Source: Desulfuromonas sp.
Lineage (GTDB): Bacteria > Desulfobacterota > Desulfuromonadia > Desulfuromonadales > Desulfuromonadaceae
Length of the DNA stretch: 64,000 nucleotides
Assembly (NCBI GenBank): GCA_002869685.1
Contig: PKUE01000146.1
Coordinates: forward strand, 4,882-68,881
Reading direction: 5' to 3'
The first letter of the stretch is position 1. Each line of letters starts with the position of its first letter. Below are positions 2,294 through 56,918 of the stretch, in pieces. Below the pieces are notes generated by a model. That model did no database searches. It had not been told where the DNA came from and saw only the letters and a list, made by a program, of their open reading frames with translations. Both the position numbers and the translations under genes were made by a program.

Positions 2294-2298
2294 AGTGT

Positions 2299-4235: not shown

Positions 4236-4251
4236 AAAAACCTCAGTCGGG

Positions 4252-6752: not shown

Positions 6753-6773
6753 ACCGCTTTTTCAGGAAAGTCT

Positions 6774-6787
6774 GTCAAAAAAATGAC
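6774..6787. promoter_or_regulatory. Palindromic enhancer-binding-protein site (FleQ-box-like)
   Basis: GTCAAAAAAATGAC matches the Pseudomonas FleQ consensus GTCAATAAATTGAC; about 100 bp upstream of a sigma54 promoter. Confidence 0.55.
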
Positions 6788-6882
6788 TTTTCTGGCTGTT
6801 TTGTCAGGAAAATATCTTCTGACGTGTTCGCCCTTCCTCTTTTATTTGACCGGGAGAGCCTGAAACCGTTGTTTAATGATGA

Positions 6883-6899
6883 TGGTGCGTTTTTTGCAT
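6883..6899 (+). promoter_or_regulatory. Sigma54 (RpoN) -24/-12 promoter of the basal-body operon
   Basis: TGGTGCGTTTTTTGCAT, GG-N10-GC spacing, 65 bp before the TPR gene. Confidence 0.75.
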
Positions 6900-6963
6900 T
6901 TAGTTGAGGATCTAGACGTAATAAAAGTCGTTTTGACCTTTTGCCGTTGAATATGGTGGTCCA

Positions 6964-9375
6964 TTGAAGCTTTATCCTTCATTTCTTTGCATCGTGTTGT
7001 TCGCAGGTCTGTCGTTGGCCGTGGCATCCAGTGCGCGAGCTGAACAGAGTTTTGTGCTGAAAAAGATCGACAAAGAAGATGAGGTGAATGTTACCCGGTT
7101 TGTCCTCGAATTCAACAAAATGCCTGAATTTCAAGTGCGGACGTCGGGGCAAAAACTGGAAGTTGACCTGCAGAAAACCGTGGCCGGGTCCGATATGGTG
7201 TTCCCGCCAGAGGATGAGCGTCTAGTTCGGGTTCTGTTGGGGCAGGGCAAAGATCGCCTGATGGTGTCGATGCTGTTACGGCGTCCACCCTATTTTGTTA
7301 ACACGTCGAAGGATCCACGTACGGAGCGGATCACGGTTGATGTCCATTGGCGTGATGCACAAAGTGGCATGCGTCCGGCTATCGCACGCAGCCTGCCGGG
7401 GCAGGTTTCTCAGCGTGACGGAATTGTCCGGCGCGGCATTGACTCAAAGTACCGTGGTGATTGGTTGCAGTTCTTTGAAGAGTACGAACTTCCGGTGGTG
7501 ATCCCGACGACTGTGCACTACACTATGCCGCCGTTTCCGGCTCTGTCGTTGTTGGGTCCGGTAGAAGATGTGCTACCGGTAGAGGTGGAGGAACTGGCGC
7601 AGGCGGAAGACTGGGATGCTGCGGTTAATGCCCTGCGCAATATTGGCTTTGAGTCGACGACAGGGACGACCCGCGCCCGCTTTCTGTTGATGATTGCAGA
7701 ACTGGAACTGCGTGGTGAGCATTATTCCAAAGCGCTAAGGACGATGGAGAACATCCGGGACCTTTTGCCGGAGGATGACGAAGCATTGCGCGGCTATCAC
7801 CGTTTGCTGCAAATGTATATTGACGCCAGTGCGCTGAGCGACCCGTATCAACTGATGGCAGCGCTGGAGTTGGATGTGCAGCGAGACGATAATGCCTTGT
7901 TGCTGCCATATTCCGAATTGTTGCATGCCGAAGTGGCTCTGGCCACCGGGCATATCAAACAAGTGAAAATCGTCCTCGAAGAGCAGATGCGGCGTGATGT
8001 CGGCAGCCTCGGGGTTTCGTATCAGCAGCGCATGGCGGATGTCTTGTTTGAGCAGGGAAACTATACTGCTGCGATCGAGCGTTATGAAGGGCTGAGTGAG
8101 CAGTTGGCGGGGTTCCCCCATTCGTTAGCCGGGTTCGCCATGAGCCTGTACCGCAGTGGTGATTATAATGGTGCCATTGTTCAGCTCAAGCGATTTCTGG
8201 ATAATGTCGATGAGCCCGAGCCCCGAGACATGGCGCGCTATCTGATGGCAATGGCCTTGATCCACCGTGGCGACAAAGATGCCGGCTACGATCTGCTTCA
8301 TCAGATCATTCCCGGGACCCAGGGGGCGTTGCTTGCCAAGGCCAAAATCGCCGATCTGAGCATGCTTGTGGATGATTTCTACAGTCGTCGACGGGCATGC
8401 AGCGACTATGGGCAATTGATCGACCAGATGGTGGACCGTGATCGACGCGCCGAAATGCAGTTTAAGAAGGCTTTGGGCGCTTATATTCTGGGGCAGCGGA
8501 TGGAGGCGGTCGAAGAGATCCGTTTTTTGCTCAAGTCGGATCGGCTGACCAATCTGGCTGGTGATGCCCAGGCTCTGTTGGCGGATATTCTGCCCGATCT
8601 TATCCGTGGCATGATTGAGGAGAAGAAATACTTTAATGCTCTGGTGCTGGTTGAACAGAACCGTGAGCTGCTTGTGGCCAGCCAACGTAATTTTGATTTT
8701 CTCATCGGCTTAGGTGAGGTGTTTTCTGAGTTGGAATTTTCAGATCGGGCTGTGAGGTTGTATTTGTATCTGCTGGATCATGCCTCCGACGAACAGGAAA
8801 CGTCACAGGTTTATATCCCTTTGTTGCGGGCGTTGATGCAGCAGGAGGACTACCGACGCGTCCTGACCTATTCAGAGCGTTTTATCCAGCAGTATCCGCA
8901 AGCGGAGCAGGGCGCCGAAGTCTTGTTATTGCGCCTCAAAGCCATGCTGGCACTGGGGCAGGAGGATGAGGTGTTTGCCGCTTTGCTGAAGCGGGACCGC
9001 CCTCATACGGAAGATTTGGATCACCTGTTGGCACATCTGGCATGGCAGCGTGGTGACATGCCCCGCGTTATTGCCAGCCTGAGTCCTTTGATCGGCGATG
9101 ATCTGGATCTGGAAGAGCCAGACGATTTGATTGTGCTGGCGGAAGCATTGATGGCCACGGGTAAAAATGCCCGAGCTTTGAAGCTCTATCGCTATTTGCA
9201 GGGAAAAGATCCCTATCGGGATCAGGCTATCTATCGTGACGCTCAGTTGTCATTGCAGCAGGGTCAGCGTGCGGTGGGGCTAAAACTTTTGCGCCAACTT
9301 GTCGAAGAAGCAAAAGATTCACAATGGCGCTCCCTGGCTGAGGAAACTCTGGCGATTGAGCGGTTTAACCGTTAG
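6964..9375 (+). CDS. Secreted AMIN-like/TPR-repeat protein (PflA-like candidate)
   Basis: Signal peptide (MKLYPSFLCIVLFAGLSLAVASSARA-E), beta-rich N-terminal domain 'TRFVLEFNKMPEFQVRTSGQKLEVDL', then long helical TPR-like repeats; first gene of the flgB operon. Confidence 0.7.
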   Translation: MKLYPSFLCIVLFAGLSLAVASSARAEQSFVLKKIDKEDEVNVTRFVLEFNKMPEFQVRTSGQKLEVDLQKTVAGSDMVFPPEDERLVRVLLGQGKDRLMVSMLLRRPPYFVNTSKDPRTERITVDVHWRDAQSGMRPAIARSLPGQVSQRDGIVRRGIDSKYRGDWLQFFEEYELPVVIPTTVHYTMPPFPALSLLGPVEDVLPVEVEELAQAEDWDAAVNALRNIGFESTTGTTRARFLLMIAELELRGEHYSKALRTMENIRDLLPEDDEALRGYHRLLQMYIDASALSDPYQLMAALELDVQRDDNALLLPYSELLHAEVALATGHIKQVKIVLEEQMRRDVGSLGVSYQQRMADVLFEQGNYTAAIERYEGLSEQLAGFPHSLAGFAMSLYRSGDYNGAIVQLKRFLDNVDEPEPRDMARYLMAMALIHRGDKDAGYDLLHQIIPGTQGALLAKAKIADLSMLVDDFYSRRRACSDYGQLIDQMVDRDRRAEMQFKKALGAYILGQRMEAVEEIRFLLKSDRLTNLAGDAQALLADILPDLIRGMIEEKKYFNALVLVEQNRELLVASQRNFDFLIGLGEVFSELEFSDRAVRLYLYLLDHASDEQETSQVYIPLLRALMQQEDYRRVLTYSERFIQQYPQAEQGAEVLLLRLKAMLALGQEDEVFAALLKRDRPHTEDLDHLLAHLAWQRGDMPRVIASLSPLIGDDLDLEEPDDLIVLAEALMATGKNARALKLYRYLQGKDPYRDQAIYRDAQLSLQQGQRAVGLKLLRQLVEEAKDSQWRSLAEETLAIERFNR

Positions 9376-9390
9376 AAGGGATAAAGAACA

Positions 9391-9801
9391 ATGATGACTA
9401 AGGGAATGATGGACCAGACGGCATTGCTGTTGAAAAAGTCCCTGGACTTGCGTTTGCGCAACCAGCAGATCATTGCCGGCAATGTTGCGAATGCGCAGAC
9501 GCCTGGTTATCGAGCCAAAACGTTTGAATTTGAGGATGCTTTGCGGCAGGCGGCAACGGGACAGGGGACCGATGTGGCGACGACCCATCCCCGACATATC
9601 TCGACTCATGGCGGTGCGATCAACAATGTCACCGGAACGATCGGTGAAATTCGTGATACCTCTGGCATCGGAGATCGCAACACGGTTCAGGTGGAACAGG
9701 AGATGATCAACCTGTCGGAAAACCAGATCATGTACGAAGCGACCACCCAGCTGTTAAATAAAAAACTCAACATCATCAAATATGTTGTTCAGGGGACATA
9801 G
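9391..9801 (+). CDS. flgB: Flagellar basal-body rod protein FlgB
   Basis: QQIIAGNVANAQTPGY, DRNTVQVEQEM. Confidence 0.97.
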   Translation: MMTKGMMDQTALLLKKSLDLRLRNQQIIAGNVANAQTPGYRAKTFEFEDALRQAATGQGTDVATTHPRHISTHGGAINNVTGTIGEIRDTSGIGDRNTVQVEQEMINLSENQIMYEATTQLLNKKLNIIKYVVQGT

Positions 9802-9812
9802 AGGAGTGAGCG

Positions 9813-10244
9813 ATGAACATCTTCACGTCAATGAATATCAGTGCTTCGGCTTTGAAGGCGCAGCGGATACGTCTGGATACCATCAGTTCCAATATGGCAA
9901 ATTCCGAAACCACCCGGACGCCGGATGGTGGTCCCTATCGACGTAAAATGGTGGTGTTTGAGCCGCAGCAGGTTTCTTTTGCCGATCACCTGTCCGCCAA
10001 AGAGAAACAGGCTTTGAACGGGGTGCGGGTCAGCGAGATTATCACTGAAGATGCCGAGCCGAGACTGGTTTTTGATCCAGGTCATCCCGATGCCAATGAA
10101 CAGGGTTATGTTGCCTTGCCCAATATCGATATCATGAAGGAAACAACGGATATGATGTTGGCGACCAGGGCTTATGAAGCGAATATTACCACGATTAAAT
10201 CAGCCAAGCGCATGGCGTTGAAAGCGTTGGAAATCGGTAAATAA
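9813..10244 (+). CDS. flgC: Flagellar basal-body rod protein FlgC
   Basis: ISSNMANSETTRTPDGGPYRRK, FDPGHPDA, AYEANI. Confidence 0.97.
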   Translation: MNIFTSMNISASALKAQRIRLDTISSNMANSETTRTPDGGPYRRKMVVFEPQQVSFADHLSAKEKQALNGVRVSEIITEDAEPRLVFDPGHPDANEQGYVALPNIDIMKETTDMMLATRAYEANITTIKSAKRMALKALEIGK

Positions 10245-41890: not shown

Positions 41891-41961
41891 TACTTTACTG
41901 AGTTGCCTGTCTGCCCACGACTAATGTGGCAGCGATTACGGAAAACTCTGAAAGGTTTGCT

Positions 41962-42207
41962 ATGCTGGTACTGACCAGAAAAGTCGGTGAAGGGATTGTC
42001 ATCGGCGATGATATTAAGTTGCAGGTTGTCGAAATCAAGGGGGGGACTATCCGCCTTGGGATTGAGGCGCCGCGCAGCAAAAAAATCTATCGCCAGGAAG
42101 TCTACGATAATATCCAACAACAAAACAAAGCGGCGACCAGCTGGTCGATCGAAGATCTTGATTTGCTTGATGGCTCCTGGCCACAAAAACCCAAGGGGGA
42201 GAAATGA
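41962..42207 (+). CDS. csrA: Carbon storage regulator CsrA (long, FliW-type)
   Basis: MLVLTRKVGEGIVIGDDI...IYRQEVY..IQQQNKAA with a C-terminal extension. Confidence 0.96.
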   Translation: MLVLTRKVGEGIVIGDDIKLQVVEIKGGTIRLGIEAPRSKKIYRQEVYDNIQQQNKAATSWSIEDLDLLDGSWPQKPKGEK

Positions 42208-42635
42208 AAACCATCCAAAGCCGTTTTGGAGAGATCGAATATGACCCTGAAAATGTTGTCACATTCCCTGAGGGGTTGATCGGTTTTGAAAACCTGCGTG
42301 ATTTTATTGTTATGCCCAACAAAAAAGAGGGGCTGCTGTTCTGGATTCAGAGTGTTGAAGATCCCGAGGTGGCTCTTGTTCTTACCGACCCGACCAATTT
42401 TTTTCTGACGTACAAAGTTGTGCCCGAGGAGGGCGAACGTGCCAAGCTCGACATTTCCGAAGAAGACGACAGTTATTCTCTGGTAGTCGTGACCGTGTCA
42501 CCGCAGCAGGAAGTGACCTTCAATCTGATGGCTCCCATCCTTTTTGCCCCCAAAACAAACCGGGCGATTCAGGTGATTTTGGAGAAAAGCGGCTATAGTA
42601 CCCGTGAACCGTTGCCGAAGATTGAAGCCTCATAA
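42204..42635 (+). CDS. fliW: Flagellar assembly factor FliW
   Basis: SRFGEIEY, FPEGLIGFE, WIQSV, NLMAPI. Confidence 0.95.
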   Translation: MKTIQSRFGEIEYDPENVVTFPEGLIGFENLRDFIVMPNKKEGLLFWIQSVEDPEVALVLTDPTNFFLTYKVVPEEGERAKLDISEEDDSYSLVVVTVSPQQEVTFNLMAPILFAPKTNRAIQVILEKSGYSTREPLPKIEAS

Positions 42636-42663: not shown

Positions 42664-43395
42664 GTGGTTCATCGACCTGAATGGCCAACGCTTCTGGTTC
42701 TTGCCGGGGGCTTTGGGACGCGACTAAAAAGTGCACTTGATGACTGTCCCAAAGCTTTGGCTCCTGTGGGAGGAACGCCTTTTTTAGGCTTGTTGTTAGA
42801 GGCTTGGCGTCAAGAAGGGGTGCGCAACATCCTTTTCCTGCTTCATCACAAGTCCGATCAGATTTCAAATTACCTGGAAAAAAATAACGACTCACTGCTT
42901 GAGAGCATCACTTGGGCGACCATCCGCGAAGAGGTCCCTCTCGGAACCGGCGGAGCCATTGCCAATGCGGTTCAAAGTCGGAACCTGAGCGGCAATATTC
43001 TTGTCGTCAACGCGGACACCTGGACCAATCAGTGCCTTGAGGTTGTCCGTTCGGCGCCTTGCCCGGCAATGGGGGTTGTCCATATCAAGGATACGTCACG
43101 TTATGGAACCGTCGAATTTGATGCAGATCATATTGTGACGGGATTTCACGAAAAAAAAGCGACGAGCTCTGAATCCGGCTGGATCAACGCCGGGGTGTAT
43201 CTACTCAATGCCGAGATGTTTCGCAACTGGGATGGCAACCCGTTTTCGCTGGAACAGGACTTTTTTCCGAAAATGGTCGAACAACGGCAACTTCACAGCG
43301 TTTCTTTAGCTACCGACTTTATCGACATTGGCGTCCCAGACGATTATCACAGATTTATTGACTGGGTCATGTCAGGAAGAGAAGAGCCTCTATGA
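42664..43395 (+). CDS. Sugar-1-phosphate nucleotidyltransferase (HddC/GDP-heptose synthase-like)
   Basis: LAGGFGTRLK, PKALAPVGG, EEVPLGTGGAI, VVNADT, INAGVY, FIDIGVPDDY. Confidence 0.85.
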   Translation: MVHRPEWPTLLVLAGGFGTRLKSALDDCPKALAPVGGTPFLGLLLEAWRQEGVRNILFLLHHKSDQISNYLEKNNDSLLESITWATIREEVPLGTGGAIANAVQSRNLSGNILVVNADTWTNQCLEVVRSAPCPAMGVVHIKDTSRYGTVEFDADHIVTGFHEKKATSSESGWINAGVYLLNAEMFRNWDGNPFSLEQDFFPKMVEQRQLHSVSLATDFIDIGVPDDYHRFIDWVMSGREEPL

Positions 43396-44762
43396 AACGA
43401 GAAGATTTTGTAATCAATCAGCACGCAACGCTCTCAGAGTCTCTGCAGCTCATCAATAACAATAAACATGGTTTTGTACTTGGTTGCGAAGGCTCGGGAA
43501 AGATTGTCGGCATCGCCACAGATGGTGATATTCGAAGGAAACTTCTCGATGGCAGGACGTTGCAGGATGAACTTCTGACCTGTCTGAATGAGGATTTTGT
43601 CTGGGCGAACGAGACAACGTCACGAGAAACTCTTCTTAAGTGTCTGGATCATCGTATCCGGGCTATTCCTGTTCTTGATGATCATGGCGGTCTGGTTGAT
43701 ATTGTCACCCGGGAAAACCTGCCCATTCAGATTGAAGAGCCAGTCTATGTTCGATCCCGGGCTCCCGCACGAATTAGCTTTGGTGGCGGTGGCTCTGATA
43801 TTACCTATTATTTCTCCGATAATGGCGGTGCCGTGATCAGTGCCACCATTAATCTGTACAGTCATGCCACGCTGAAAAAACGTGATGATTCACGTGTGCG
43901 TATTTTGTCTCGGGATTTGAATTGCTCCCTTGAAGCTGAAAATTTAAATGCAGCACTTAAATCACCCGGCAAGTTTGGTCTTATTCTGGCGATTGTCAGG
44001 CTGGTTTCTCCGACCTTTGGTTTTGATCTGTATCTGAATTCCGACTTTCCGGTTGGCTCCGGTTTGGGAGGCTCGGCCGTGGTCACTGCGGCAGTCTTAG
44101 GCTGTTTCAACCAGTTCCGGCAGGATAAGTGGAATAACTACGAACTGGCCGAGCTTGCTTTTCAGGCAGAGCGGATGAACTTTGACATTGCCGGAGGTTG
44201 GCAGGACCAGTATGCAACGGTCTTTGGTGGTTTCAATTTTATGGAATTTAAAATGGATCAGAATCTGATCCATCCGTTACGGATTGATCCGGCGACATTG
44301 CGGGAATTGGAAGAGTGTCTGATCATCTGTGACACGAACATGCCCCATGATTCCGGGAAAATCCATAAGGACCAGAAAACAACGATTCTGAAATCAGATG
44401 GCAGCCAGGCTGTGATGAAAAATGTCGAAATGACCTACCGGTTGAGAAATGATCTGTTGCGTGGCCGGTTGCTAGATTTCGGCCGCAACCTGAATTCGAT
44501 CTGGCAGCTCAAAAGGCAGTTCAGTAACAAAATTACCAACCCCACCCTGGATGAGATTTACAACTACGCGCTTGAGAACGGTGCCGAAGGGGGCAAGTTG
44601 ATGGGAGCCGGCGGCGGTGGTTTTTTCATGTTTTACGTGAATCCGTTTAATAAATACGGATTGGTCGAAGCCCTGGAGAGTCGGGGTCTCGGAGTGCGGA
44701 ATTTTCAGTTTGACAATGACGGGTTACAGTCCTGGGTTGTCAGGGCAACCGAAAAAGAGTAG
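43392..44762 (+). CDS. CBS-domain / GHMP sugar kinase fusion (HddA-like)
   Basis: N-terminal CBS pair (GIATDGDIRR..L; AIPVLDDHG.LVDI); RAPARISFGGGGSD, PVGSGLGGS, GGWQDQYA, GGKLMGAGGGG. Confidence 0.88.
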   Translation: MKREDFVINQHATLSESLQLINNNKHGFVLGCEGSGKIVGIATDGDIRRKLLDGRTLQDELLTCLNEDFVWANETTSRETLLKCLDHRIRAIPVLDDHGGLVDIVTRENLPIQIEEPVYVRSRAPARISFGGGGSDITYYFSDNGGAVISATINLYSHATLKKRDDSRVRILSRDLNCSLEAENLNAALKSPGKFGLILAIVRLVSPTFGFDLYLNSDFPVGSGLGGSAVVTAAVLGCFNQFRQDKWNNYELAELAFQAERMNFDIAGGWQDQYATVFGGFNFMEFKMDQNLIHPLRIDPATLRELEECLIICDTNMPHDSGKIHKDQKTTILKSDGSQAVMKNVEMTYRLRNDLLRGRLLDFGRNLNSIWQLKRQFSNKITNPTLDEIYNYALENGAEGGKLMGAGGGGFFMFYVNPFNKYGLVEALESRGLGVRNFQFDNDGLQSWVVRATEKE

Positions 44763-44777
44763 GAGCTGTTTCAGCAT

Positions 44778-46673
44778 ATGAATTTTCAAATAGGTCGCCT
44801 GAATGTCAGTAATGAGCGCTGCACCATCATTGCTGAAATCGGCAATAACCATAATGGTGATTTTGAACGCGCGATCGCGTTAGTCGATCAGGCCCAATCG
44901 ATTGGTGTCGATTGCGTGAAGTTCCAGATGCGAGTTCTGGATCAGGTTTATCGAAAAAAAACGTTAGCTCGCAGCGGCGAAGATCTTTCGACAGAATATG
45001 TCGTCGATCTGTTGGAAAAATTTGAATTGTCACCCGACGAGCATTACCGGCTTTTCGACTATTGCCAAAAAATCGGCATCGAATACCTCTGTACGCCATG
45101 GGATCTCGAAAGTACGAGGATTCTCGAATCTTTCGGGGTGCCCGGGTATAAAATCTCTTCCGCCGATTTGACCAACCTGCCGTTGATTGATGCGGTAGCC
45201 AGAACACAAAAACCGCTGATTTTGTCGACCGGGATGAGTTACTTTGACGAGGTCAAGAAAACGGTCGCGTTCCTGCAAAAACACAACGCGAACTTTGCCC
45301 TGCTGCACTGCAACAGTACTTATCCGGCCCCCCTTCAGGACATCAATCTGAACTGGATGTCACGATTAAAGGAGCTGCATCCCCTGGTGGGCTATTCGGG
45401 GCACGAGAGAGGGATTGCCGTGTCGTTTGCGGCCCGAGCTCTTGGTGCGTGTATTATTGAACGCCATTTTACCCTGGATCGCGAAATGGAAGGCCCTGAC
45501 CATGCCGCCAGCCTTGAATTCAACGATTTTGACGCATTGGTCAAAGGTCTCCGTGATATCGAAATGGCACTCGGATCTTCAGAGGAGCGTGTGCTGAGTC
45601 AAGGTGAAATTATCAACAGAGAGAACCTGTCCAAAAGCCTGATTGCCTCAAGGCCGCTGAAACTCGGGACGGTTCTGGCGCCCGGGGATATCAGTGTACG
45701 AAGTCCCGGCCAGGGATTGTCACCCCAATGTTACGAAAGTCTGTTGGGGAAAGTTCTGCACAGAGATATGGAGGAGGAGGATTTCTTCTACCAGACTGAT
45801 TTGCACGAGACGGTGATTGAACCGAAAAACTACAGCTTCGACCGTCCATGGGGGATCCCGGTCCGCTATCACGATTTTCAAAAATTCCACACCTTCGTTC
45901 AACCGGACTTTTTCGAGTTTCATTTTTCCTATTCCGACATGAGCCTTGATCCCGCGGATTTTCTCCACGGTGAGTACGACTGCGATTTTGTTGTGCATGC
46001 CCCGGAACTGTTTTCGGGAAGCCACCTGATGGACCTGGCAACGCCGGATGACTCTTATCGCCAGCAATCGCTGCAGGAAACACAGCGCATCATTGATATT
46101 ACGCGAGCGCTCAAGAAATATTTTCCGCGCACCAAACGACCTATGATTGTTGCCAATATCGGTGGGTTTACGATGGACCAGCCGATTGCGAAACAGGAAC
46201 ATGAGGCCTACTATCGCCGCTTTGCCGAAAGTCTGAAAGCGCTGGATCTTCAAGGTGTCGAGCTCATTCCGCAAACGATGGCACCGTTCCCGTGGCACTT
46301 TGGCGGACAACGCTATCAGAACCTGTTTGTCGAACTCGATGAAATCATCGAGTGGTGTGAAAAGCTTAACATCCGACTGTGTTATGACGTTTCTCACAGC
46401 GCTTTGACCTGTGCTGCATACGGTGTCGATATCTATGATTTTAGCGCAAAAATTTCTCCCTATGTGGCGCATCTGCATCTTGCTGACGCAAAAGGGGTTA
46501 ACGGGGAGGGGTTGCAGATCGGCGAGGGCGATCTTGATTTCATCCGCTTAAATGAGATTCTGCGCCGGGGCTGTCCCCAGGCTTCATTTATTCCCGAAAT
46601 ATGGCAGGGCCATAAAAATAACGGTGAAGGCTTCTTTATTGCCCTTGATAAACTGGAACAGTTGTCCCGTTGA
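44778..46673 (+). CDS. neuB: NeuB-family ulosonic acid synthase with SAF and C-terminal xylose-isomerase-like TIM barrel
   Basis: IIAEIGNNHNGD, KISSADLTN, ILSTGM, LHCNSTYP, GYSGHE, IERHFTLD, GPDH.ASL; C-terminal VHAPE, CYDVSH, HLHLAD, IGEGDLDF, FIPEIWQGH. Confidence 0.88.
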   Translation: MNFQIGRLNVSNERCTIIAEIGNNHNGDFERAIALVDQAQSIGVDCVKFQMRVLDQVYRKKTLARSGEDLSTEYVVDLLEKFELSPDEHYRLFDYCQKIGIEYLCTPWDLESTRILESFGVPGYKISSADLTNLPLIDAVARTQKPLILSTGMSYFDEVKKTVAFLQKHNANFALLHCNSTYPAPLQDINLNWMSRLKELHPLVGYSGHERGIAVSFAARALGACIIERHFTLDREMEGPDHAASLEFNDFDALVKGLRDIEMALGSSEERVLSQGEIINRENLSKSLIASRPLKLGTVLAPGDISVRSPGQGLSPQCYESLLGKVLHRDMEEEDFFYQTDLHETVIEPKNYSFDRPWGIPVRYHDFQKFHTFVQPDFFEFHFSYSDMSLDPADFLHGEYDCDFVVHAPELFSGSHLMDLATPDDSYRQQSLQETQRIIDITRALKKYFPRTKRPMIVANIGGFTMDQPIAKQEHEAYYRRFAESLKALDLQGVELIPQTMAPFPWHFGGQRYQNLFVELDEIIEWCEKLNIRLCYDVSHSALTCAAYGVDIYDFSAKISPYVAHLHLADAKGVNGEGLQIGEGDLDFIRLNEILRRGCPQASFIPEIWQGHKNNGEGFFIALDKLEQLSR

Positions 46674-46701
46674 GTTGATCTCAACGGATGTGAGGCATGC
46701 G

Positions 46702-47364
46702 ATGGCGAATTACGCGATTATACCGATACGAAGTGGGAGCAAACGATTCCCCAATAAAAACATCTTTCCCATAGATGGGTTGCCGTTGTTTCATTTCGCG
46801 GCGCATGTTGCCCGGTTAAGTGGTGTTTTTGATAAGGTGATTATCACCAGTGACAGCGAGGAATACCTCAAGATCGCTCAAGACTACGGCTATGATCTGC
46901 ACAAGCGGTCTGAAGCCGCATCTTCAGACCATGCCAGCTCCGAAGATATTATTGACGAAGTTCTCAGAGATTTTGATATGAAGGAAGGTGACTGGGCTTT
47001 TCTCATTCAGGCGACGTCTCCGTTTCAGCAGGAGCATTATTTCCAAGCTGCTGCCGCTCAAATCAATCGTGGGATCTCCAGTATTGTCACCTATCGAAGT
47101 TTTAAACGGTTTTTTCTTGAAGATGTCATTGGTAAAGAGCGCAAGAGGACCCAGGATTTTGCCAGCCGCAAGCTTGAGACCGGCATGTTCTGGGGCTTTA
47201 ATGTCGGGGCTTTTTTTGAAAAGAAAAACAGAATTATCGAGCCTTATGGATTAGTCGAGATAAAAGAATTCGATGATGTTGATATCGACTATTTTGAGGA
47301 TATTGAAAACCATATCCCCCGTTTAAAAGCGCTAGCGCAACAGTACAAAGCCGAAAAACCTTAA
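46702..47364 (+). CDS. Acylneuraminate cytidylyltransferase (NeuA/PseF/LegF-like)
   Basis: AIIPIRSGSKRFPNKN, IITSDSEE, LIQATSPF, DIDYFED; start reassigned to the ATG at 46702. Confidence 0.88.
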   Translation: MANYAIIPIRSGSKRFPNKNIFPIDGLPLFHFAAHVARLSGVFDKVIITSDSEEYLKIAQDYGYDLHKRSEAASSDHASSEDIIDEVLRDFDMKEGDWAFLIQATSPFQQEHYFQAAAAQINRGISSIVTYRSFKRFFLEDVIGKERKRTQDFASRKLETGMFWGFNVGAFFEKKNRIIEPYGLVEIKEFDDVDIDYFEDIENHIPRLKALAQQYKAEKP

Positions 47365-47378
47365 CCGAAGGGGTAAGC

Positions 47379-48176
47379 ATGGCCGGAAATAAATTTGATC
47401 GTTTGAACTACGACGAATATTTTGTGCGAAGAACCCCACCGCAGGCGGTAGATTTTGAAGAGGGTTATTGGGGAGAATCCACAGATCCCGATGGCGTCAT
47501 CAGGAATATTGGTGAAGAGCGTGAGCACAAAAGAGAGCTGGCGGCAACGGAGTTGTCGTTTATCAATGCCCTCACCCCCGGACGTGTGCTCGACGTGGGG
47601 TGTGGTGTTGGTGCCATTCTCGAGGGGGTGAATGACTCCTGGGAGAAGCATGGCCTCGAAGTCTCTCAGTATGCTGCGGAAAAGGCTCAGCCTTACGGGG
47701 AGATCTTTTGTGGGGAATTACATCAGGCAAAATATCCCGATGGTTTTTTTGACGCCATTTTACTGTTTCATGTGATTGAACATCTGCAGTCTCCGCTGGA
47801 GGTCCTCACCGAAATCCGTCGCATTCTGAAGGTTGATGGTTGGCTGATTGTCGGGACCCCCGACTTTGACTGCGGTTGCGCGAGAAAATATGGCGACCAA
47901 TTCCGACTGTTGCACGATATTACCCATATTACGCTGTTTTCCAGTAACAGCCTGTTCCGGATGATGACGGATCTGGGTTTTTCAGTTGAGAAAACGGAGT
48001 ATCCATTTTTTGATACGAAGTATTTTACCAAAGAAAATCTTTTACGATTGTTTGACGATCAGGCGGTTTCACCACCTTTTTACGGCAATATTATGACCAA
48101 ATATTGTCGTAAACTCAGTAAGGAAGAGTGCGAAGAACGCGTGGAGTATCTGAAAACGCTGATCGATCGCATGTAA
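47379..48176 (+). CDS. Class I SAM-dependent methyltransferase
   Basis: VLDVGCGVG, GLEVSQYAA, FDAILLFHVIEHL. Confidence 0.88.
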   Translation: MAGNKFDRLNYDEYFVRRTPPQAVDFEEGYWGESTDPDGVIRNIGEEREHKRELAATELSFINALTPGRVLDVGCGVGAILEGVNDSWEKHGLEVSQYAAEKAQPYGEIFCGELHQAKYPDGFFDAILLFHVIEHLQSPLEVLTEIRRILKVDGWLIVGTPDFDCGCARKYGDQFRLLHDITHITLFSSNSLFRMMTDLGFSVEKTEYPFFDTKYFTKENLLRLFDDQAVSPPFYGNIMTKYCRKLSKEECEERVEYLKTLIDRM

Positions 48177-48224
48177 TTAGCTTTTCACTGTCACCAATTC
48201 GTCAGCTAACTTCGGGGAGGCACC

Positions 48225-48950
48225 TTGAGCTCAATTGATAAGCTATTCAAGCAGACACCACATCCTGCTGAGGTCAGTGATTACTGGCATGTATTTGATT
48301 TGTCGAACTGCCTCAATGTTTTTTATTGGGCCAAATATTTTGAGATGGCTGAACAAGCTCCCGCGGGTTGCATCATAGAATGTGGTGTTGGCCGGGGGCG
48401 GAGCTTGATCAGCCTGTTGGCGCTCGAAGCACTTTTTTCTGCAATGAATAGCAGGCCGTATCGCCAGGTTTATGCATTGGACAGTTTTGAAGGATTTCCC
48501 GAACCGCATCAGGTGTTTGATCAAAGTCCCCGCAATCCCCAAAAGGGTCAATGGGGAAGTTCACCGAACAACCAGTTCTCATATTCCGTTGACAATCTGG
48601 TGACGATTTTAAGAAATTCGCATGTTTACGATGTTGCAAAAGAACAACTAGAAATAGTAAAGGGATTCTTCTCTGAAACCATTCCCACGTTGAATGTCGG
48701 CGCTATCTCAATTCTTCATCTGGATGGAGATTTGTATGAATCGGTAAAGTGTCCACTGGATGCGTTATGGGAAAAGGTTGTCCTTGGTGGGGTGATCGTT
48801 ATTGATGATTTTGTGCTGGTTGATGAACACGAAAAGGATGAGCCGTTTCCAGGGGCCCGTAAGGCCGTTCTCGATTTTATGGAGAACAATGAATGCTTCG
48901 AGATCAAAGGAAGCGTCAGGGGAACGCCATATCTTGTGCGGGTGCGGTAA
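48225..48950 (+). CDS. TylF/MycF/NovP-family sugar O-methyltransferase
   Basis: IECGVGRGRS, DSFEGFP, KGFFSETIP, LHLDGDLYES, GGVIVIDDF. Confidence 0.85.
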   Translation: MSSIDKLFKQTPHPAEVSDYWHVFDLSNCLNVFYWAKYFEMAEQAPAGCIIECGVGRGRSLISLLALEALFSAMNSRPYRQVYALDSFEGFPEPHQVFDQSPRNPQKGQWGSSPNNQFSYSVDNLVTILRNSHVYDVAKEQLEIVKGFFSETIPTLNVGAISILHLDGDLYESVKCPLDALWEKVVLGGVIVIDDFVLVDEHEKDEPFPGARKAVLDFMENNECFEIKGSVRGTPYLVRVR

Positions 48951-49012
48951 TTGATCTGCACGATTGAATCAGGGCGAGGCTTGTGGTTTTGGAGAAAGGT
49001 TTGTGAGGTACC

Positions 49013-50974
49013 ATGTCAAAAATAGATAGTCTGAAAGAGATGACCCCGCAGGGGCGTGCTGAAGCATTAGAGCAGCAATTCCAAAAAAACAAAGCCTTTT
49101 TCCAAAAGAATTATCCTGAGGTCGCCCCCTTTTTAGGCGCAGGTGCCGCTCCCTTTCATATCAATGTTACCGACGATTTTTTGACGATTGTCAACACGGA
49201 GAATGGAGAACTCTGCCATCCGGAAGTTGGCCTGGATCTTTTTGCGCAGAAACTTGGCGACTGGACCCATAAAGCATGGATTGATCTGATCGACGGGACA
49301 ATTTATTCCTTTCCGGATCACGGTTATTATTCACAGTTTCCGGTGCGGTTTCAGAAAAAGATGCTCGAGTCTTTCCCTGGCCTGATACCGCGTATGGAAG
49401 GGCGGCAGATCAACCTTCCCGAACTCGCCAATGGTAAACACTTTTCAAACCCGGTTGTTTTTTACGGCGTATTTCATGGTCTGCATATCGATCACTATCT
49501 CAGCCGGACTCAGCTTGCTTGTGCCGCCTTTGTTGAGCCGGAGCCCGCTCGTTTTGTTCTTTCCTGCTATTTCCTCGATTACCAGTCGTTCGAGACAAGG
49601 TTTGAGAGACTGATCCTTCATATCGGTCCGGGCTTACCGGAAAACTTTGTTGATCTTTTTTTCAGACAGGCCAAAGTCTCCAGTGGCGTATGGACGAGGA
49701 TATTGCCCGGTTATCCCTCGCCGCAGCTCGAAGAGGTGACACGCTCATTCCGGCTGAAATGGCGTTCGCGTGATGTCTGGATGCCCCAGGACTGGCGCAT
49801 TAAAGGGATGGAAAATGCTCACGCTAACATTACCGGCGGGGATTTGATCTGGGGACAACATGTGTCGTTGTCTTCGAAAAGCCGCATTGCCGTGGTTGGT
49901 GCCGGACCTTCTTTGAGTCATGATCTTGAATGGCTTGCGCAGCATCAGGATCAGTTTGTCATTTTTTCAGTACACAGTGCAGTGTCCGCATTGAGAACTG
50001 CCGGGATTAAACCGGATTTTCAATTTACCCTGGATATTAACCCTTGGGATGAGGAAATTTTTCAGCGGGTTCAACTGGACCCTTCAGTTCCTGTAGTGAC
50101 ATCGGTTAATGATTTCCCGGATAAGTTTCAAGCTTTTGACGAAGTATTCAGAATTGTTCAGGAAGATGGGGTGAACCCGTTTCAGATGAAAAACGGGGTT
50201 CCTTTTCTTGTGCCGACATCGGGGAATATGGCGCTGGCCTTTGCCTGTTGGTGCAAGCCTTCTCAGATCTATCTTTTTGGTTTGGATTTCGGTTTTCGCG
50301 AATCAACCAAAACGCACGTTGCTGAAAGCTCTGCCTACCGAAATGAGGATGAACACCGGGAGATTATCGGTTCAGGCTCCCTTGAGGTTGAAGCGAATTT
50401 CAGCGGAGCTGAAAAAGTTTATGCCCAGTCCTACTTTAATATGGCCCGTCTTTGTGCTGAAGTTCCAATTGCCGTCGCAAATGGAGAGGTTAAGGTGTTT
50501 AACTGCTCCGACGGGGCGCGTCTTCGTTCCGCCACCCCCTGTCGATCTTGCGATATCGAAGCGAGAGACTACTGTAAAGAAGATGATCTGCGGCGGATAA
50601 AAGAGATGTTTCTGCCTCTGGTAGAGGGAGTGCACTGGGATCGTTTTGCTCTTACGGGTGCGTCTCAACTGGAAGCTTATAAAGCTGCCATGGTGAGACT
50701 GTTAAAAATGAAAAAGTTCAACTGGCTGAAATTTGTAGATAAAATAGATCACTTTTATCTTCTGTTGCAGAAACAGTTGCCGAACAAGGTTGCCAAAAAC
50801 ACCGATCCCCGAATCATCCCCTATGTTGAACTTATTGTGCTGTTGTTTGATGCCTGGTATCGCTTCCTGTGTTTCACAAATACAGAAGAAGAATGGGGAA
50901 GCGTCTATGAAAAAGGCTATGTAGAGCTGTGCAAACTTGTTGAAGAGATGTTCTGGCCTGAAGGGCTCAATTAG
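49013..50974 (+). CDS. Maf-family flagellin glycosyltransferase (DUF115)
   Basis: IAVVGAGPSL, SALRTAGIKPDF, IYLFGLDFG, VFNCSDGA; directly upstream of the flagellins. Confidence 0.85.
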   Translation: MSKIDSLKEMTPQGRAEALEQQFQKNKAFFQKNYPEVAPFLGAGAAPFHINVTDDFLTIVNTENGELCHPEVGLDLFAQKLGDWTHKAWIDLIDGTIYSFPDHGYYSQFPVRFQKKMLESFPGLIPRMEGRQINLPELANGKHFSNPVVFYGVFHGLHIDHYLSRTQLACAAFVEPEPARFVLSCYFLDYQSFETRFERLILHIGPGLPENFVDLFFRQAKVSSGVWTRILPGYPSPQLEEVTRSFRLKWRSRDVWMPQDWRIKGMENAHANITGGDLIWGQHVSLSSKSRIAVVGAGPSLSHDLEWLAQHQDQFVIFSVHSAVSALRTAGIKPDFQFTLDINPWDEEIFQRVQLDPSVPVVTSVNDFPDKFQAFDEVFRIVQEDGVNPFQMKNGVPFLVPTSGNMALAFACWCKPSQIYLFGLDFGFRESTKTHVAESSAYRNEDEHREIIGSGSLEVEANFSGAEKVYAQSYFNMARLCAEVPIAVANGEVKVFNCSDGARLRSATPCRSCDIEARDYCKEDDLRRIKEMFLPLVEGVHWDRFALTGASQLEAYKAAMVRLLKMKKFNWLKFVDKIDHFYLLLQKQLPNKVAKNTDPRIIPYVELIVLLFDAWYRFLCFTNTEEEWGSVYEKGYVELCKLVEEMFWPEGLN

Positions 50975-50999: not shown

Positions 51000-51027
51000 T
51001 AAATATTTGCTGCCGATCGGCCGATGC
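51000..51027 (+). promoter_or_regulatory. Sigma28 promoter of flagellin 1
   Basis: TAAA-N16-GCCGATGC. Confidence 0.7.
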
Positions 51028-51224: not shown

Positions 51225-52412
51225 ATGGCTTTAACAATTAATACAAATGTTGCGTCTCTCAATGCGCAACGCAATCTGGGCACTTCCCAGGTGGATCTTG
51301 ACAGGTCCATGCAGCGGTTGTCTTCCGGTTTGCGCATCAATAATGCCAAGGATGACGCCGCAGGGCTGGCCATCTCTGACCGGATGACGGCACAGATTCG
51401 TGGCCTGAATCAGGCTGCCCGTAATGCTAATGATGGCATTTCGATGGCGCAAACCGCCGAAGGGGCCTTACAGGAGAGTACCAATATCCTGCAGCGTATC
51501 CGTGAACTGGCCGTTCAATCTGCCAACGACACCAACAGCATCTCCGATCGTGCGTCTCTGAACGATGAAGTTGAACAATTGATCGAAGAGTTGGACCGCA
51601 TTGCTCAGACCACTCAATTCAATGGGATCAACGTTATTGATGGCAGTTTGACCAGTGCCGTATTCCAGGTCGGGGCGAATGCCGGCTCCAACCAGACCAT
51701 CTCATTCGGTATTGAAAGTGCCCTCGCTACGGATTTGGGGACTGCAGGCGAAGAGGTTGTCGCTGCGGCAACAGCAACGACAACGTTCAATGGTCTCAAG
51801 TTTACCGCAGGGAGTGCCGGCGCAGACGGAAATGAGAGTTTTTCTCTCTCGGTTGTTCAGACTTCCGCGGCCAATACCGATGTCACGTTGACGCCATCGG
51901 AGAATTATTTGCTGGTGGAATTGGGGACGGCAACGGGGCAGGACCAGGCAAGTGTTGTTCTTGCCCAGCTTGACGATTTGGGGTTCACGGGTTTTACCGG
52001 AGTTTCAGTTGAGACGGTATCGGCAACGACCACATGGTCGACAGATCTTAGTGGCAGCACCATCTCGCTGACGGGTGGGACTGATCTGGTTGAATCGGTT
52101 GCCGTTGCAGATATTTCTGTCAAGACTCTCAACGACGCGCAGGCCGCAATCGCCAGTGTTGATAATGCACTTGACGATATTGATAATATTCGGGGTGGTC
52201 TTGGCGCGGTGCAGAACCGATTTGAGTCGTCAATTGCCAACTTGAATAATGTTGCTGAAAACCTTGCTGCCGCCCGATCGAGGATTCTTGACGCAGATAT
52301 CGCTCAGGAAACCTCCAATATGACTAAGCAGAATATTTTACAGCAGGCCGGAGTTTCCATTCTGGCCCAGGCTAATCAGGGCCCTCAGTTGGCTTTGTCG
52401 CTGCTGGGATAG
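51225..52412 (+). CDS. fliC: Flagellin 1
   Basis: [36 protein letters not shown]. Confidence 0.98.
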
Positions 52413-52460
52413 CGATAAAAATTTTTTTTTGAAAAAAAAGAAGAAAAGTGATTTTTTTTC

Positions 52461-52488
52461 TAAACTCTATCGGCGGAGTCGTCGATAA
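52461..52488 (+). promoter_or_regulatory. Sigma28 promoter of flagellin 2
   Basis: TAAA-N16-GTCGATAA with an upstream A/T tract. Confidence 0.8.
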
Positions 52489-52591
52489 AGTGGATAACGG
52501 GAAGATTACAGCGGAAAAGGAGGTGGGTAGATCGTTATCAGCTTTCCCTCGTAACTTCTAACAAACGAATAACTCGCCGGACCGTCCGGCA

Positions 52592-52605
52592 GGGCACGGA
52601 AGCCC
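52592..52605 (+). promoter_or_regulatory. CsrA-binding hairpin in the flagellin 2 leader
   Basis: GGGC-ACGGAA-GCCC (GGA in a hexaloop), with a second AUGGA overlapping the SD. Confidence 0.75.
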
Positions 52606-52633
52606 ACTAAACACAATCATGGAGGACTAAATC

Positions 52634-53812
52634 ATGGCATTAACAATTAACACTAACGTAGCATCCCTTAACGCCCAACGTAACCTCGGTTCATCTCAGG
52701 CAAACCTCAACAAGTCCATGCAGCGCCTGTCTTCAGGTCTGCGCATCAACAGTGCTAAGGACGACGCAGCGGGTCTGGCTATTTCTGACCGTATGACCGC
52801 TCAAATCCGCGGCCTCAACCAGGCAGCTCGTAATGCAAACGATGGTATCTCTCTGGCGCAAACTGCTGAAGGCGCTCTGCAAGAGAGCACCAACATTCTG
52901 CAGCGTATTCGTGAGCTGGCCGTTCAGTCTGCCAACGATACCAACAGCGTTTCTGACCGTGCTTCTCTGAACGATGAAGTTTCTCAACTGGTTGAAGAGC
53001 TTGATCGTATTGCTCAAACTACAGAGTTCAACGGTACAAACGTTATCGATGGTACCCTGTCCAACGCGGTATTCCAGGTTGGTGCAAATGCAGGTTCTAA
53101 CCAGACCATCTCCTTTGGCATCGAGAGTGCCCAAGCTGCTGATCTGGGTACTGCAGGTGATGAAGTTATCGCTGCCGCTACAGCAACCGGTTCTTTCTCT
53201 GACCTGACTTTCACTGCTGATGCCGCAGGTTCTACTGCGAATGCAACTTACACCATCGTTGCTAATCAGTCGGCTGCAACAGCATCCAGCACCAGTGCTA
53301 CTTTTACGGCATCGAATAACACGATTACCGTAACTCTGGGAACCACTACTGGTCAGGATGCTGCCAGTGTTGTTGCAACCGCTGTTGCTAGTGCACTGAG
53401 CGGTGTTAGCGTTTCTGCAGCTACCGGCGCGGCCGCTTGGACTGCTTCCAGTGATGGTTCTGTCACCTTGGCTGGTGGTAGTGATCAGATCGTAACGACA
53501 GCTGTTGCTGATATCACCATCGCGACTCGTGAGGGTGCGCAGTCTGCTATCTCCAGTGTTGATAAGGCTCTGGAAGACGTTGACAACATTCGTGGCGGCC
53601 TTGGTGCGGTACAAAATCGCTTCGAATCAACCATTGCCAACCTGAACAATGTTGCTGAGAACCTTTCAGCTGCACGCAGTCGGATTCTTGATGCGGATAT
53701 CGCTCAGGAAACCTCCAACATGACCAAGCAGAATATCCTGCAGCAAGCTGGTGTTTCTATCCTGGCGCAAGCCAACCAGGCACCTCAGCTGGCTCTGTCT
53801 CTGCTGGGCTAA
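52634..53812 (+). CDS. fliC: Flagellin 2 (probable major flagellin)
   Basis: Conserved flagellin termini; Ser/Thr/Ala-rich variable region; T-ending codon bias. Confidence 0.98.
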
Positions 53813-53831: not shown

Positions 53832-53862
53832 AAAAGGGCCGGCTTTGGCCGGCCCTTTTTTC
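53832..53862 (+). terminator. Rho-independent terminator after flagellin 2
   Basis: AAAAGGGCCGGC-TTTG-GCCGGCCCTTTT plus T run. Confidence 0.9.
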
Positions 53863-56342: not shown

Positions 56343-56495
56343 AAAAGCATCCGCGCGATGTGGATGTCCCACCATGATGTCAATGGTGGGTGATGCGGAA
56401 TGGAGGGAACGGGCGGCGTTGCCTCCGACAAAAATGCATGTCTTTCAATTGGGTTTTATCATTTAAGATCCCTCTCCGTCAGAAAGAGCCCTCTT

Positions 56496-56918
56496 ATGCC
56501 CGAACCGATTTTATCATCGCAGCTGGAGCAGGCGCTCATCCTTTCAATTGAGCACTATCAGACTATTCTTTCCCAAATGACGCTTATTTCTCGGTTGCTG
56601 TCGTCATCAGATCCGGGGCTGCCGGAACAGGTGACACGTCTGGTGGCTCTTCAGCAACAGGCTCGCGAAGAAGATCAAAGACTGATGGTGATGTTGCGCG
56701 AGCACGAAAGAAATATTTCAGTGCATCCTTTGTTCAGGCAGCGCATGGAGTTGCTTGCCGAGGTACTGCGGTTGAATCATTTGCTTTTACCCAAAATTAA
56801 TGGCATGATGGCGCTCATTTCCCACGAGTTGTCAGACCTTAAAAAAGGGCGCTCTGTTTTGGGGGGATATAAGCAGGGAACACATAATCAAGGCCGGATC
56901 ATTCGGTCAAGCGCGTGA
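56496..56918 (+). CDS. Helical chaperone-like protein (FliT position)
   Basis: Follows fliS; all-helical; C-terminal 'ELSDLKKGRSVLGGYK'; probable ATG at 56496. Confidence 0.55.
   Translation: MPEPILSSQLEQALILSIEHYQTILSQMTLISRLLSSSDPGLPEQVTRLVALQQQAREEDQRLMVMLREHERNISVHPLFRQRMELLAEVLRLNHLLLPKINGMMALISHELSDLKKGRSVLGGYKQGTHNQGRIIRSSA

Follow-up and report, generated by a model that had tools for sequence, protein, structure and literature searches.

The window, a stretch of 64,000 nt from Desulfuromonas sp. (assembly GCA_002869685.1, contig PKUE01000146.1, forward-strand positions 4,882-68,881), harbored seven open reading frames at 42664-50974, lying between fliW and two flagellin genes. All seven were intact, tightly packed and located on the + strand, in agreement with the original prediction of seven co-oriented genes at this position. 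The upstream flank comprised flgK, flgL, csrA (41926..42207, +; TIGR00202 CsrA, 86 bits, above cut-off; 79-80% identity in three congeners) and fliW (42204..42635, +; PF02623 FliW, 120 bits), which formed the left border of the island. The two flagellin genes, flaG, fliD and fliS constituted the downstream flank. The genome searched was a 186-contig draft, 94.8% complete, with about 5% missing.

The first gene (42664..43395, +; PF00483 NTP_transferase) encoded an HddC-like sugar-1-phosphate nucleotidyltransferase. Its best NCBIfam match was HddC (1e-41; 140 bits, cut-off 300) and its best PDB match was Yersinia HddC (5xhw/6jq8; 3e-33, versus 9e-20 for Man-1-P guanylyltransferase). The second gene (43392..44762, +) overlapped the first by 4 nt and combined a CBS pair and an HddA-like GHMP kinase in one protein (PF00571, PF00288 and PF08544). 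HddA was the best NCBIfam match of the latter (1e-76; 258 bits, cut-off 600), and the heptokinases 4n3o, 3k85 and 4usk (1e-61 to 1e-53) were closer to it in the PDB than fucokinase (1e-20). These upstream enzymes had been considered similar to GDP-heptose or neutral-sugar enzymes, and the GDP-heptose enzymes HddC and HddA were indeed their closest families and structures. According to alignment with WcbL (PMC4691232), the island kinase retained the heptose-binding and catalytic residues: R127, D136, Q271 and D272 corresponded to WcbL R13, D22, Q162 and D163, respectively, and were invariant in 76 kinases of the cassette described below. Residue Q162 was tied by the WcbL authors to the extra carbon, and the WcbL sugar pocket also binds mannose (PMC4691232). 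Substrates of the island kinase and nucleotidyltransferase may differ from those of HddA and HddC, because both scores were far under the equivalog cut-offs.

The third gene (44778..46673, +) encoded a fusion of 631 aa, composed of a NeuB-type synthase (PF03102, 280 bits), a SAF domain (PF08666) and, at residues ~345-631, a xylose-isomerase-like metal-binding TIM barrel (PF01261, AP_endonuc_2, 85 bits). It scored below both the NeuB model (330 bits, cut-off 400) and the PseI model (236 bits, cut-off 340). Its NeuB domain lacked NmNeuB Arg314, the arginine mutated in entries 4ipi/4ipj; this position was occupied by Ser309, a serine invariant across 80 fusions. The barrel was modelled with a pLDDT of 86, and its fold was matched about equally by UlaE, Endo IV and ketose 3-epimerases. 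No second NeuB was found in the 94.8%-complete genome, where the fusion was the sole NeuB-family synthase and two further, weak PF03102 matches were DAHP synthases.

The fourth gene (46702..47364, +; PF02348 CTP_transf_3, 80 bits) encoded a CMP-ulosonate cytidylyltransferase of the NeuA/KdsB superfamily. Its long reading frame started at 46552; the PF02348 match began at residue 55 of this frame, and an in-frame ATG at 46702 displayed a GAGG motif 6 nt upstream. The true start is probably the ATG at 46702 rather than 46552, which removes a 122-nt overlap with the fusion gene. The enzyme reached 96 bits against the PseF model (cut-off 205) and was 59% identical to the NeuA of a simple cassette at locus L039. 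From these model scores, neither synthase nor cytidylyltransferase was a Pse, Leg or Neu equivalog, in line with the atypical pathway initially proposed. Two methyltransferase genes followed. One was a class I SAM methyltransferase (47379..48176, +; Methyltransf_23/11, PF13489, 87 bits) that shared 65% identity with one encoded in the cassette of L039. The other was a TylF-family sugar O-methyltransferase (48225..48950, +; PF05711, 99 bits), a gene also encountered within the cassette of locus L107 and represented by a 39% homologue in locus L086.

The last gene (49013..50974, +) encoded a predicted Maf flagellin ulosonic-acid glycosyltransferase, in which an MptE-like domain (PF01973, 98 bits) was accompanied by a weakly matching Maf N-terminal domain. 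It was the sole MptE-like gene of the genome and the sole transferase in the island and the window. Its location beside the flagellin genes supported the assignment to a Maf-type flagellin glycosylation island. It ended 250 nt upstream of flagellin 1 (51225..52412, +; 395 aa; PF00669 and PF00700), which was preceded by a sigma-28-like promoter motif read by eye, TAAA-N16-GCCGATGC (51000..51027, +). A like layout, TAAA-N16-GTCGATAA, was seen by eye at 52461-52488, upstream of flagellin 2 (52634..53812, +; 392 aa; PF00669 and PF00700). Both flagellins are presumed acceptors. Central residues 151-300 of flagellin 1 displayed 28% Ser+Thr, versus 14% in the termini, and the central region of flagellin 2 displayed 31%. 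A terminator-like hairpin (12 bp, GC-rich, followed by a T run) was present after flagellin 2 at 53832-53859.

The first three island genes corresponded to the core of a widespread cassette, which occurred in over 500 species of different phyla with fusions 62-69% identical to that of the island. Gene neighbourhoods were sampled at 81 cassette loci from many phyla. The genes adjoining the fusion encoded the kinase in 77 of these loci, the HddC-like enzyme in 66, a GmhA-like SIS protein in 61 and a GmhB-type HAD protein in 29. The order HddC-HddA-fusion and its translational coupling were constant across phyla, being shared by 66-77 of the 81 loci, and both were kept in the island; Leptospira perolatii, whose fusion was 67% identical, displayed the same order. 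The cassette HAD protein exceeded the GmhB subfamily cut-off (191 versus 150 bits), while phosphoheptose isomerase was the best match of the SIS protein. All five examined genomes with a SIS-less cassette carried a GmhA-type gene elsewhere. Accessory genes of the cassette in other genomes comprised the GmhA-like SIS, a stand-alone AP_endonuc_2 barrel, two to three SDRs and, in some cases, GmhB or an aminotransferase of class IV. They were absent from the island, and no homologue of the stand-alone barrel was found in the genome.

The NeuB::barrel fusion was encountered in none of 60 relatives, and flagellin genes directly followed fliW, without an island, in the three congeners checked. Judged from these two comparisons, the island is an acquisition absent from the congeners searched, which we term recent.

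All four enzyme types of the GDP-D-glycero-alpha-D-manno-heptose pathway (GmhA, HddA/WcbL, GmhB and HddC), which provided the best family and structure matches of the first two island genes, were also carried by the cassette in most other genomes. In Desulfuromonas, GmhA and GmhB were located outside the island. The former was part of an LPS core cluster (215 bits, above cut-off), and a GmhB-like phosphatase gene, 44% identical to the cassette GmhB, was found at C115. HldE was present as well; all three lay with the LPS heptose genes and were unlinked to the island. Their location fits the earlier suggestion that the genome might encode the lacking steps outside the island. The island differed from the GDP-heptose pathway by the extra N-terminal CBS pair of its kinase, by scores far under the equivalog cut-offs and by the absence of a heptosyltransferase. 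Since HddA/HddC homologues supply GDP-heptose to capsules and S-layers (PMC4691232), and since many cassette loci sat in capsule or O-antigen clusters with several glycosyltransferases, two products could be envisaged: GDP-heptose from HddA/HddC and a CMP-ulosonic acid from NeuB/NeuA, combined in a mixed flagellin glycan or destined for different surface polymers. This is improbable, as Maf was the lone transferase and as the coupled gene order was preserved even in this stripped-down island. The mixed heptose/ulosonate glycan was accordingly the least supported option of the original prediction.

Known Maf islands (Campylobacter, Helicobacter, Aeromonas caviae, Clostridium botulinum and Magnetospirillum) resembled the present one by Maf next to flagellins, a NeuB-family synthase, a CMP-transferase and Ser/Thr-rich flagellin centres. 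In contrast to them, neither PseB/C/H/G nor LegB/C/H/G were found in the Desulfuromonas island or genome, the synthase carried a fused barrel and followed genes for a kinase and a nucleotidyltransferase of heptose type, and two methyltransferases were encoded instead of modifiers of the acyl or amidino kind. The island contained no 4,6-dehydratase, DegT aminotransferase, N-acetyltransferase, PseG or NeuC/LegG. Neither NeuC/LegG (Epimerase_2) nor PseG nor a true DegT aminotransferase was found in the 94.8%-complete genome, which did contain a GmhA and a GmhB-like gene. The predicted lack of dehydratase, aminotransferase, acyltransferase and NeuC-type enzyme thus held for the island and largely for the genome, the exception being one PglF-like 4,6-dehydratase at a contig edge. 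Together with the lack of a second NeuB, this makes ordinary Pse or Leg unlikely as the island product.

According to a rival explanation, the product would be ordinary pseudaminic, legionaminic or N-acetylneuraminic acid, supplied by unlinked or unassembled genes (for example via an animal-like ManNAc-6-P route), and the heptose-like genes would be incidental. This explanation could draw on the missing ~5% of the genome and on the PglF-like gene. It could also draw on the nearest Maf relative (55% identity, locus L136), which lay beside a flagellin gene and adjoined an ordinary NeuB. A fusion of the same domain architecture in Leptospira interrogans was read as a Neu5Ac-9-P synthase/phosphatase, the fused domain being the proposed phosphatase (Ricaldi et al. 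2012, PMC3438082), and Serratia marcescens produces a small amount of Neu5Ac, about 1:20 with Kdn (PMC9000132). We nevertheless regard this rival as highly improbable given the lack of NeuC/LegG, PseG and DegT-type aminotransferase in the genome, the NeuB domain scores under both cut-offs and the missing Arg314 equivalent in 80 out of 80 fusions.

The same architecture was present in Serratia marcescens KL1/KL2, where a NeuB::COG1082 fusion is needed for the Kdn of the capsule (Anderson et al. 2022, PMC9000132), a sugar identified against standards. The Leptospira and Serratia loci serve capsule or lipoprotein-associated glycans, whereas the island presumably serves flagellin. Fused neuB and neuA were the only type-specific genes in Serratia, without the kinase and nucleotidyltransferase genes that the island possesses (PMC9000132). 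The synthase can thus apparently work without heptose-type genes, which makes their role here uncertain; such partner genes were not discussed in PMC3438082 or PMC9000132.

The island product could then be plain, possibly O-methylated Kdn (C9) derived from mannose-6-phosphate or GDP-mannose, with the barrel as Kdn-9-phosphate phosphatase and the HddA/HddC-like pair acting on mannose phosphates. The likeness in domain make-up to the Serratia fusion, the phosphatase role proposed by Ricaldi et al., the accommodation of mannose by the WcbL pocket and the GDP-mannose enzymes encoded in the genome, a ManC/PMI gene among them, all speak for it. The conversion of Man-6-P to Kdn-9-P, however, would need neither a 1-kinase nor a nucleotidyltransferase, yet no other genes accompanied the fusion as often as these two (77 and 66 of 81 loci). 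Moreover, the cassette SIS and HAD genes were GmhA- and GmhB-like, and most bacteria already possess ManA/B/C. Plain Kdn therefore appears somewhat doubtful.

In the Kdn pathway of Bacteroides thetaiotaomicron, a Kdn-9-P synthase is followed by a HAD Kdn-9-P phosphatase and a CMP-Kdn synthetase. The island was similar in combining a NeuB-family synthase for an amino-free nonulosonic acid with subsequent CMP activation. It differed by a fused metal barrel instead of the HAD phosphatase and by a 1-kinase and a nucleotidyltransferase without counterpart in that pathway.

We favor, with a probability of about 60%, the reading that the island was acquired horizontally and serves Maf-type O-glycosylation of flagellin, with a sugar that would be made by a minimal HddC-like/CBS-HddA-like/NeuB::TIM barrel cassette and would not be Pse or Leg. 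This sugar is most likely methylated, free of nitrogen and similar to sialic acid, with nine or possibly ten carbons. It is probably Kdn with O-methylation or a C10 analogue derived from heptose; plain Kdn is a sub-case of this reading, from which it differs by chain length only. Tentatively, the product might be a C10 O-methylated 3-deoxy-ulosonic acid formed from D-glycero-D-manno-heptose and PEP, activated with CMP and attached to flagellin by Maf, the barrel being a new type of NDP-sugar hydrolase that replaces NeuC.

Every step of the corresponding route is inferred. The island kinase would phosphorylate O1, an unlinked GmhB-type phosphatase would remove the 7-phosphate, and the HddC-like enzyme would yield an NDP-heptose, probably GDP-heptose. 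The fused barrel could then release the free aldose in place of the missing NeuC/LegG-type hydrolase, or could act as a phosphoesterase. Condensation of the aldose with PEP by the NeuB domain would give an amino-free 3-deoxy-ulosonic acid, C10 from heptose or Kdn (C9) from mannose. The cytidylyltransferase would form the CMP-sugar, one or both methyltransferases would O-methylate the sugar, and Maf would attach it to Ser/Thr residues of the central domain, which is exposed in both short flagellins. According to PMC11339370 and its preprint, amino-free Kdo, and Neu5Ac, can be transferred by Maf enzymes.

Higher-carbon ulosonic acids have so far been unexplained MS signals only, for instance in Magnetospirillum gryphiswaldense (bioRxiv 10.64898/2026.04.20.719630). 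Should the C10 reading be true, it would provide them with a genetic basis, add a new class of sugars and define the pathway to it in hundreds of species. Should the product be Kdn, the cassette would explain Kdn synthesis in many bacteria as well as the job of the fused barrel. New here are the Maf/flagellin context and the minimal gene set of the cassette, the island being its smallest version seen in this analysis. Four core genes with housekeeping GmhA and GmhB would be compact enough for in vitro reconstitution, with flagellin as an easy analytical read-out. To our knowledge, what is understood of Maf-dependent flagellin glycosylation concerns only Pse, Leg and sugars derived from them, and the Desulfuromonas island would add a methylated ulosonic acid that lacks amino groups.

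The window was filled by a large Desulfuromonas flagellar gene cluster in the order flgG, flgA, flgH, flgI ... flgM, flgN, flgK, flgL, csrA, fliW and glycosylation island, followed by two flagellin genes, flaG, fliD, fliS, a PilZ gene and fliK. The PilZ protein was 90% identical to its D. acetoxidans counterpart. Seven intact ORFs of the + strand, with intergenic spacings of -4 to 62 nt, occupied the space between the end of fliW (42635) and the start of flagellin 1 (51225). The domains assigned to them in the original prediction agreed with domain searches: an NTP_transferase (HddC-like), a CBS pair joined to a GHMP kinase, a NeuB + SAF + AP_endonuc_2 fusion (44778-46673), a CTP_transf_3 cytidylyltransferase, a class I methyltransferase, a TylF-type O-methyltransferase and Maf. 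The long ORF of the cytidylyltransferase matched its family only from residue 55 and contained an in-frame ATG at 46702 with a GAGG motif ahead of it, which points to this ATG as the probable true start, without overlap with the fusion. A sigma-28-type motif read by eye, TAAA-N16-G(C/T)CGAT, preceded each flagellin gene; the island was thus located upstream of the flagellin promoters. A terminator scan detected no strong terminator at the fliW/island boundary. Scanning the island for sigma-70 promoters and terminators gave counts at shuffle level, except for a hairpin after flagellin 2, and did not inform operon structure.

Two small features were recorded in the flanks. csrA stood ahead of fliW (41926-42635) in the window and in congeners, the reverse of the Bacillus order fliW-csrA, and the listed csrA ORF was about 12 residues longer at its N-terminus than the family model. 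A 172-aa ORF after fliS (56400-56918) belonged to no Pfam family and was kept at ~59% in congeners, between fliS and the PilZ flagellar-brake-like gene.

We consider it reasonably likely (probability about 0.6) that the product of the island is an amino-free 3-deoxy-ulosonic acid, O-methylated and CMP-activated, which Maf would place on the central regions of both flagellins, where Ser and Thr make up 28-31% of the residues. Ordinary Pse, Leg or Neu5Ac made by unseen genes appeared highly improbable in view of the whole draft assembly (186 contigs, 94.8% complete), in which the fusion was the sole NeuB-family synthase; two weak PF03102 matches were rejected, both being DAHP synthases. The genome search named in the original prediction (pse, leg, neuC, gmhA, gmhB) recovered GmhA and a GmhB-like gene. 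Epimerase_2 proteins were not found in this assembly, and hence no NeuC, LegG or WecB, nor was PseG; DegT-type aminotransferases yielded only partial matches, none above 49 bits. Maf was the sole MptE-like gene of the assembly. The only amino-sugar-type enzyme found was a PglF/CapD-like membrane 4,6-dehydratase of 614 aa (contig C109, 1-1851), which started at the contig edge, so that its upstream neighbours lay beyond the assembled sequence; its downstream genes were unrelated. This edge location and the missing 5% of the genome are the main caveats to the absence of Pse/Leg routes.

The NeuB domain of the fusion scored under the equivalog cut-offs of NeuB and PseI alike. Its Ser309 aligned with Arg314 of Neisseria meningitidis NeuB, a residue that presumably touches the N-acetyl group of ManNAc; this very position is the one altered in PDB entries 4ipi and 4ipj, to Ala and Lys. 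Ser309 was invariant across 80 members of the fusion family, as were further pocket changes (Asp130 for Glu134, Ser180 for Asn184, and His242). Judged from the alignment, these substitutions would fit a substrate without an N-acetyl group.

The description of the upstream enzymes as GDP-heptose-like was supported: heptose enzymes were their best structural relatives, although kinase and nucleotidyltransferase scored well below the curated HddA and HddC cut-offs and are therefore probably not equivalogs. The kinase matched the heptokinases 4n3o, 3k85 and WcbL at 1e-61 to 1e-53, versus 1e-20 for fucokinase, and the nucleotidyltransferase matched Yersinia HddC at 3e-33, versus 9e-20 for mannose-1-P guanylyltransferase. 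In WcbL, R13 and D163 are catalytic, while D22, Q162 and D163 bind the sugar; Q162, a Leu in galactokinases, makes room for the extra carbon of heptose, and mannose too occupies the pocket (PMC4691232). The corresponding residues of the island kinase (R127, D136, Q271 and D272 for R13, D22, Q162 and D163) were invariant in 76 kinases of the cassette, a widespread gene set with the HddC-like gene, the HddA-like kinase and the fusion as its core. This conservation supports, short of proof, a putative substrate of the heptose-7-phosphate type.

Relatives of the fusion numbered thousands in sequence searches. The best 120 came from Leptospira, Azospira, Catenovulum and numerous metagenomes; each was ~630 aa long, shared the three-domain architecture and was 65-69% identical. 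In species-representative genomes, 508 loci encoded a relative, among them loci of Bacteroidota, Pseudomonadota, Leptospira, Cyanobium, Chlorobium, Nitrospinota and Bdellovibrionota. Homologues of window or Azospira genes were counted within 10 kb of the fusion at 81 loci: the CBS-GHMP kinase was present at 77, the HddC-like gene and a stand-alone AP_endonuc_2 barrel at 66 each, two or three SDRs at 61-68, a GmhA-like SIS gene at 61, a GmhB-type HAD gene at 29 and a class IV aminotransferase at 24. Gene order agreed across the called-gene tables of four loci. The HAD protein of the Azospira cassette passed the GmhB subfamily cut-off (191 bits versus 150), and its SIS protein had phosphoheptose isomerase as best match (3e-51). 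Cassettes without SIS in genomes without GmhA were sought against the heptose idea and not seen: all five genomes tested with SIS-less cassettes held a GmhA-type gene elsewhere, in two of them just beyond the fetched flank. The idea survived this check, short of proof. Taken with the SIS and HAD identities, these genes indicate that the full cassette carries all four GDP-D-glycero-D-manno-heptose enzyme types together with a NeuB-type synthase and a CMP-transferase. Downstream of one cassette copy (locus L106, 14218-18121), an APS-kinase-like gene, a PEP-utilizer-domain protein, a GATase and an NTP-transferase formed a set that we take to resemble the genes for O-methyl phosphoramidate (MeOPN) synthesis in Campylobacter; the cassette sugar may be decorated with phosphoramidate in that organism.

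The fused barrel (residues 345-631) was modelled by AlphaFold at pLDDT 86 and pTM 0.87. Its fold matched L-xylulose-5-P 3-epimerase UlaE, M. tuberculosis endonuclease IV and ketose 3-epimerases, all at ~TM 0.65 and 13-16% identity, and the sole sequence match in PDB was the uncharacterised MJ1311. The modelled fold would suit a phosphoesterase, an epimerase or an isomerase alike. Invariant His, Asp and Glu residues were numerous at strand ends, so a metal site is likely. Since the fusion had the 1-kinase and the nucleotidyltransferase as its most conserved partners, an NDP-sugar is, by pathway logic, probably an obligatory intermediate. By the same logic, given such an intermediate and no NeuC-, LegG- or PseG-type hydrolase, the barrel is the best candidate for freeing the aldose needed by NeuB. 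A phosphatase role of the fused domain, the idea of Ricaldi et al. (PMC3438082), is possible.

In Serratia marcescens KL1/KL2, capsule Kdn, identified against standards by GC-MS, HPAEC-PAD and DMB-UPLC with Neu5Ac at ~1:20 beside it, requires neuA and a neuB with an added COG1082 domain (PMC9000132). As these are, according to that paper, the sole type-specific genes there, the synthase family, to which the Serratia enzyme is likened by its described domains, apparently makes an amino-free C9 acid without heptose-type genes. Clostridium botulinum and Geobacillus Maf enzymes transfer Neu5Ac and amino-free Kdo in heterologous hosts, as reported in a paper and its preprint (PMC11339370), which makes an amino-free CMP-ulosonic acid a plausible donor for Maf. 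Higher-carbon ulosonic acids may also occur in nature, since a 2026 preprint describes CMP-linked ulosonic acids bearing the marker of a C10 backbone in Magnetospirillum gryphiswaldense; its available part assigns no gene cluster to them (bioRxiv 10.64898/2026.04.20.719630). A literature search on C10 ulosonic acid names returned nothing relevant.

We rate a C10 acid from heptose and Kdn from mannose as about equally probable, leaning slightly towards heptose on account of the conserved GmhA, HddA, GmhB and HddC set. Precursor supply did not separate C9 from C10, the genome containing both GmhA/HldE and a ManC fragment. In the favoured reading, GmhA and GmhB would be provided in trans by LPS synthesis, for which GmhA, HldE and a GmhB-like gene were present. 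A pair of products, one GDP-heptose and the other a CMP-acid, is unlikely: the second transferase that this would call for was absent from the island and the window.

The island was acquired and is of mosaic make-up. The fusion was absent from 60 of 60 relatives (12 congeners, 11 further members of the family, 37 others of the order), whose synthase, where present, was an ordinary NeuB of ~350 aa; none of the 12 congeners displayed an island-type Maf. In three congeners (L130, L131, L132), one of them apparently D. acetoxidans, fliW was directly followed by four flagellin genes, flaG, fliD and fliS. The central domains of these flagellins (~600-930 aa) were much longer than those of the two short window flagellins (395 and 392 aa in full; 51225-53812). 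The conserved termini were 81-84% identical; gain of the island was therefore accompanied by exchange or shortening of the variable surface domain. GC content was 48.1% in the island and 52.2% and 51.4% in its flanks.

A metagenome scan for Maf relatives returned a single contig, Ga0163223_102095 (1-4923). Its Maf, the closest (55% identical), was flanked by an ordinary NeuB-type synthase and by a short flagellin with flaG, the flagellin termini being 82-87% identical to those of the window. The contig probably represents a related Desulfuromonadales organism with an island version for a conventional nonulosonic acid, which suggests that a Maf lineage using such an acid elsewhere recombined with the cassette core. 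The island NeuA (59%) and first methyltransferase (65%) were closest to those of a simple form of the cassette in an uncultured gammaproteobacterium (L039), where these genes adjoined a CST-I-like sialyltransferase. In that variant (6529-7515, 8955-10004) an IS element with an rve integrase lay just upstream, the kinase ORF (349 aa) lacked the CBS pair and the HddC-like gene was a weak remnant; this copy may be decaying. A distant Maf-like gene was located immediately upstream of the cassette in Catenovulum and Algibacillus, and an MptE-like gene 3' of it in Leptospira perolatii. The fusion had been noted twice in the literature; the window adds its Maf/flagellin context, a minimal four-gene core and clear evidence of acquisition.
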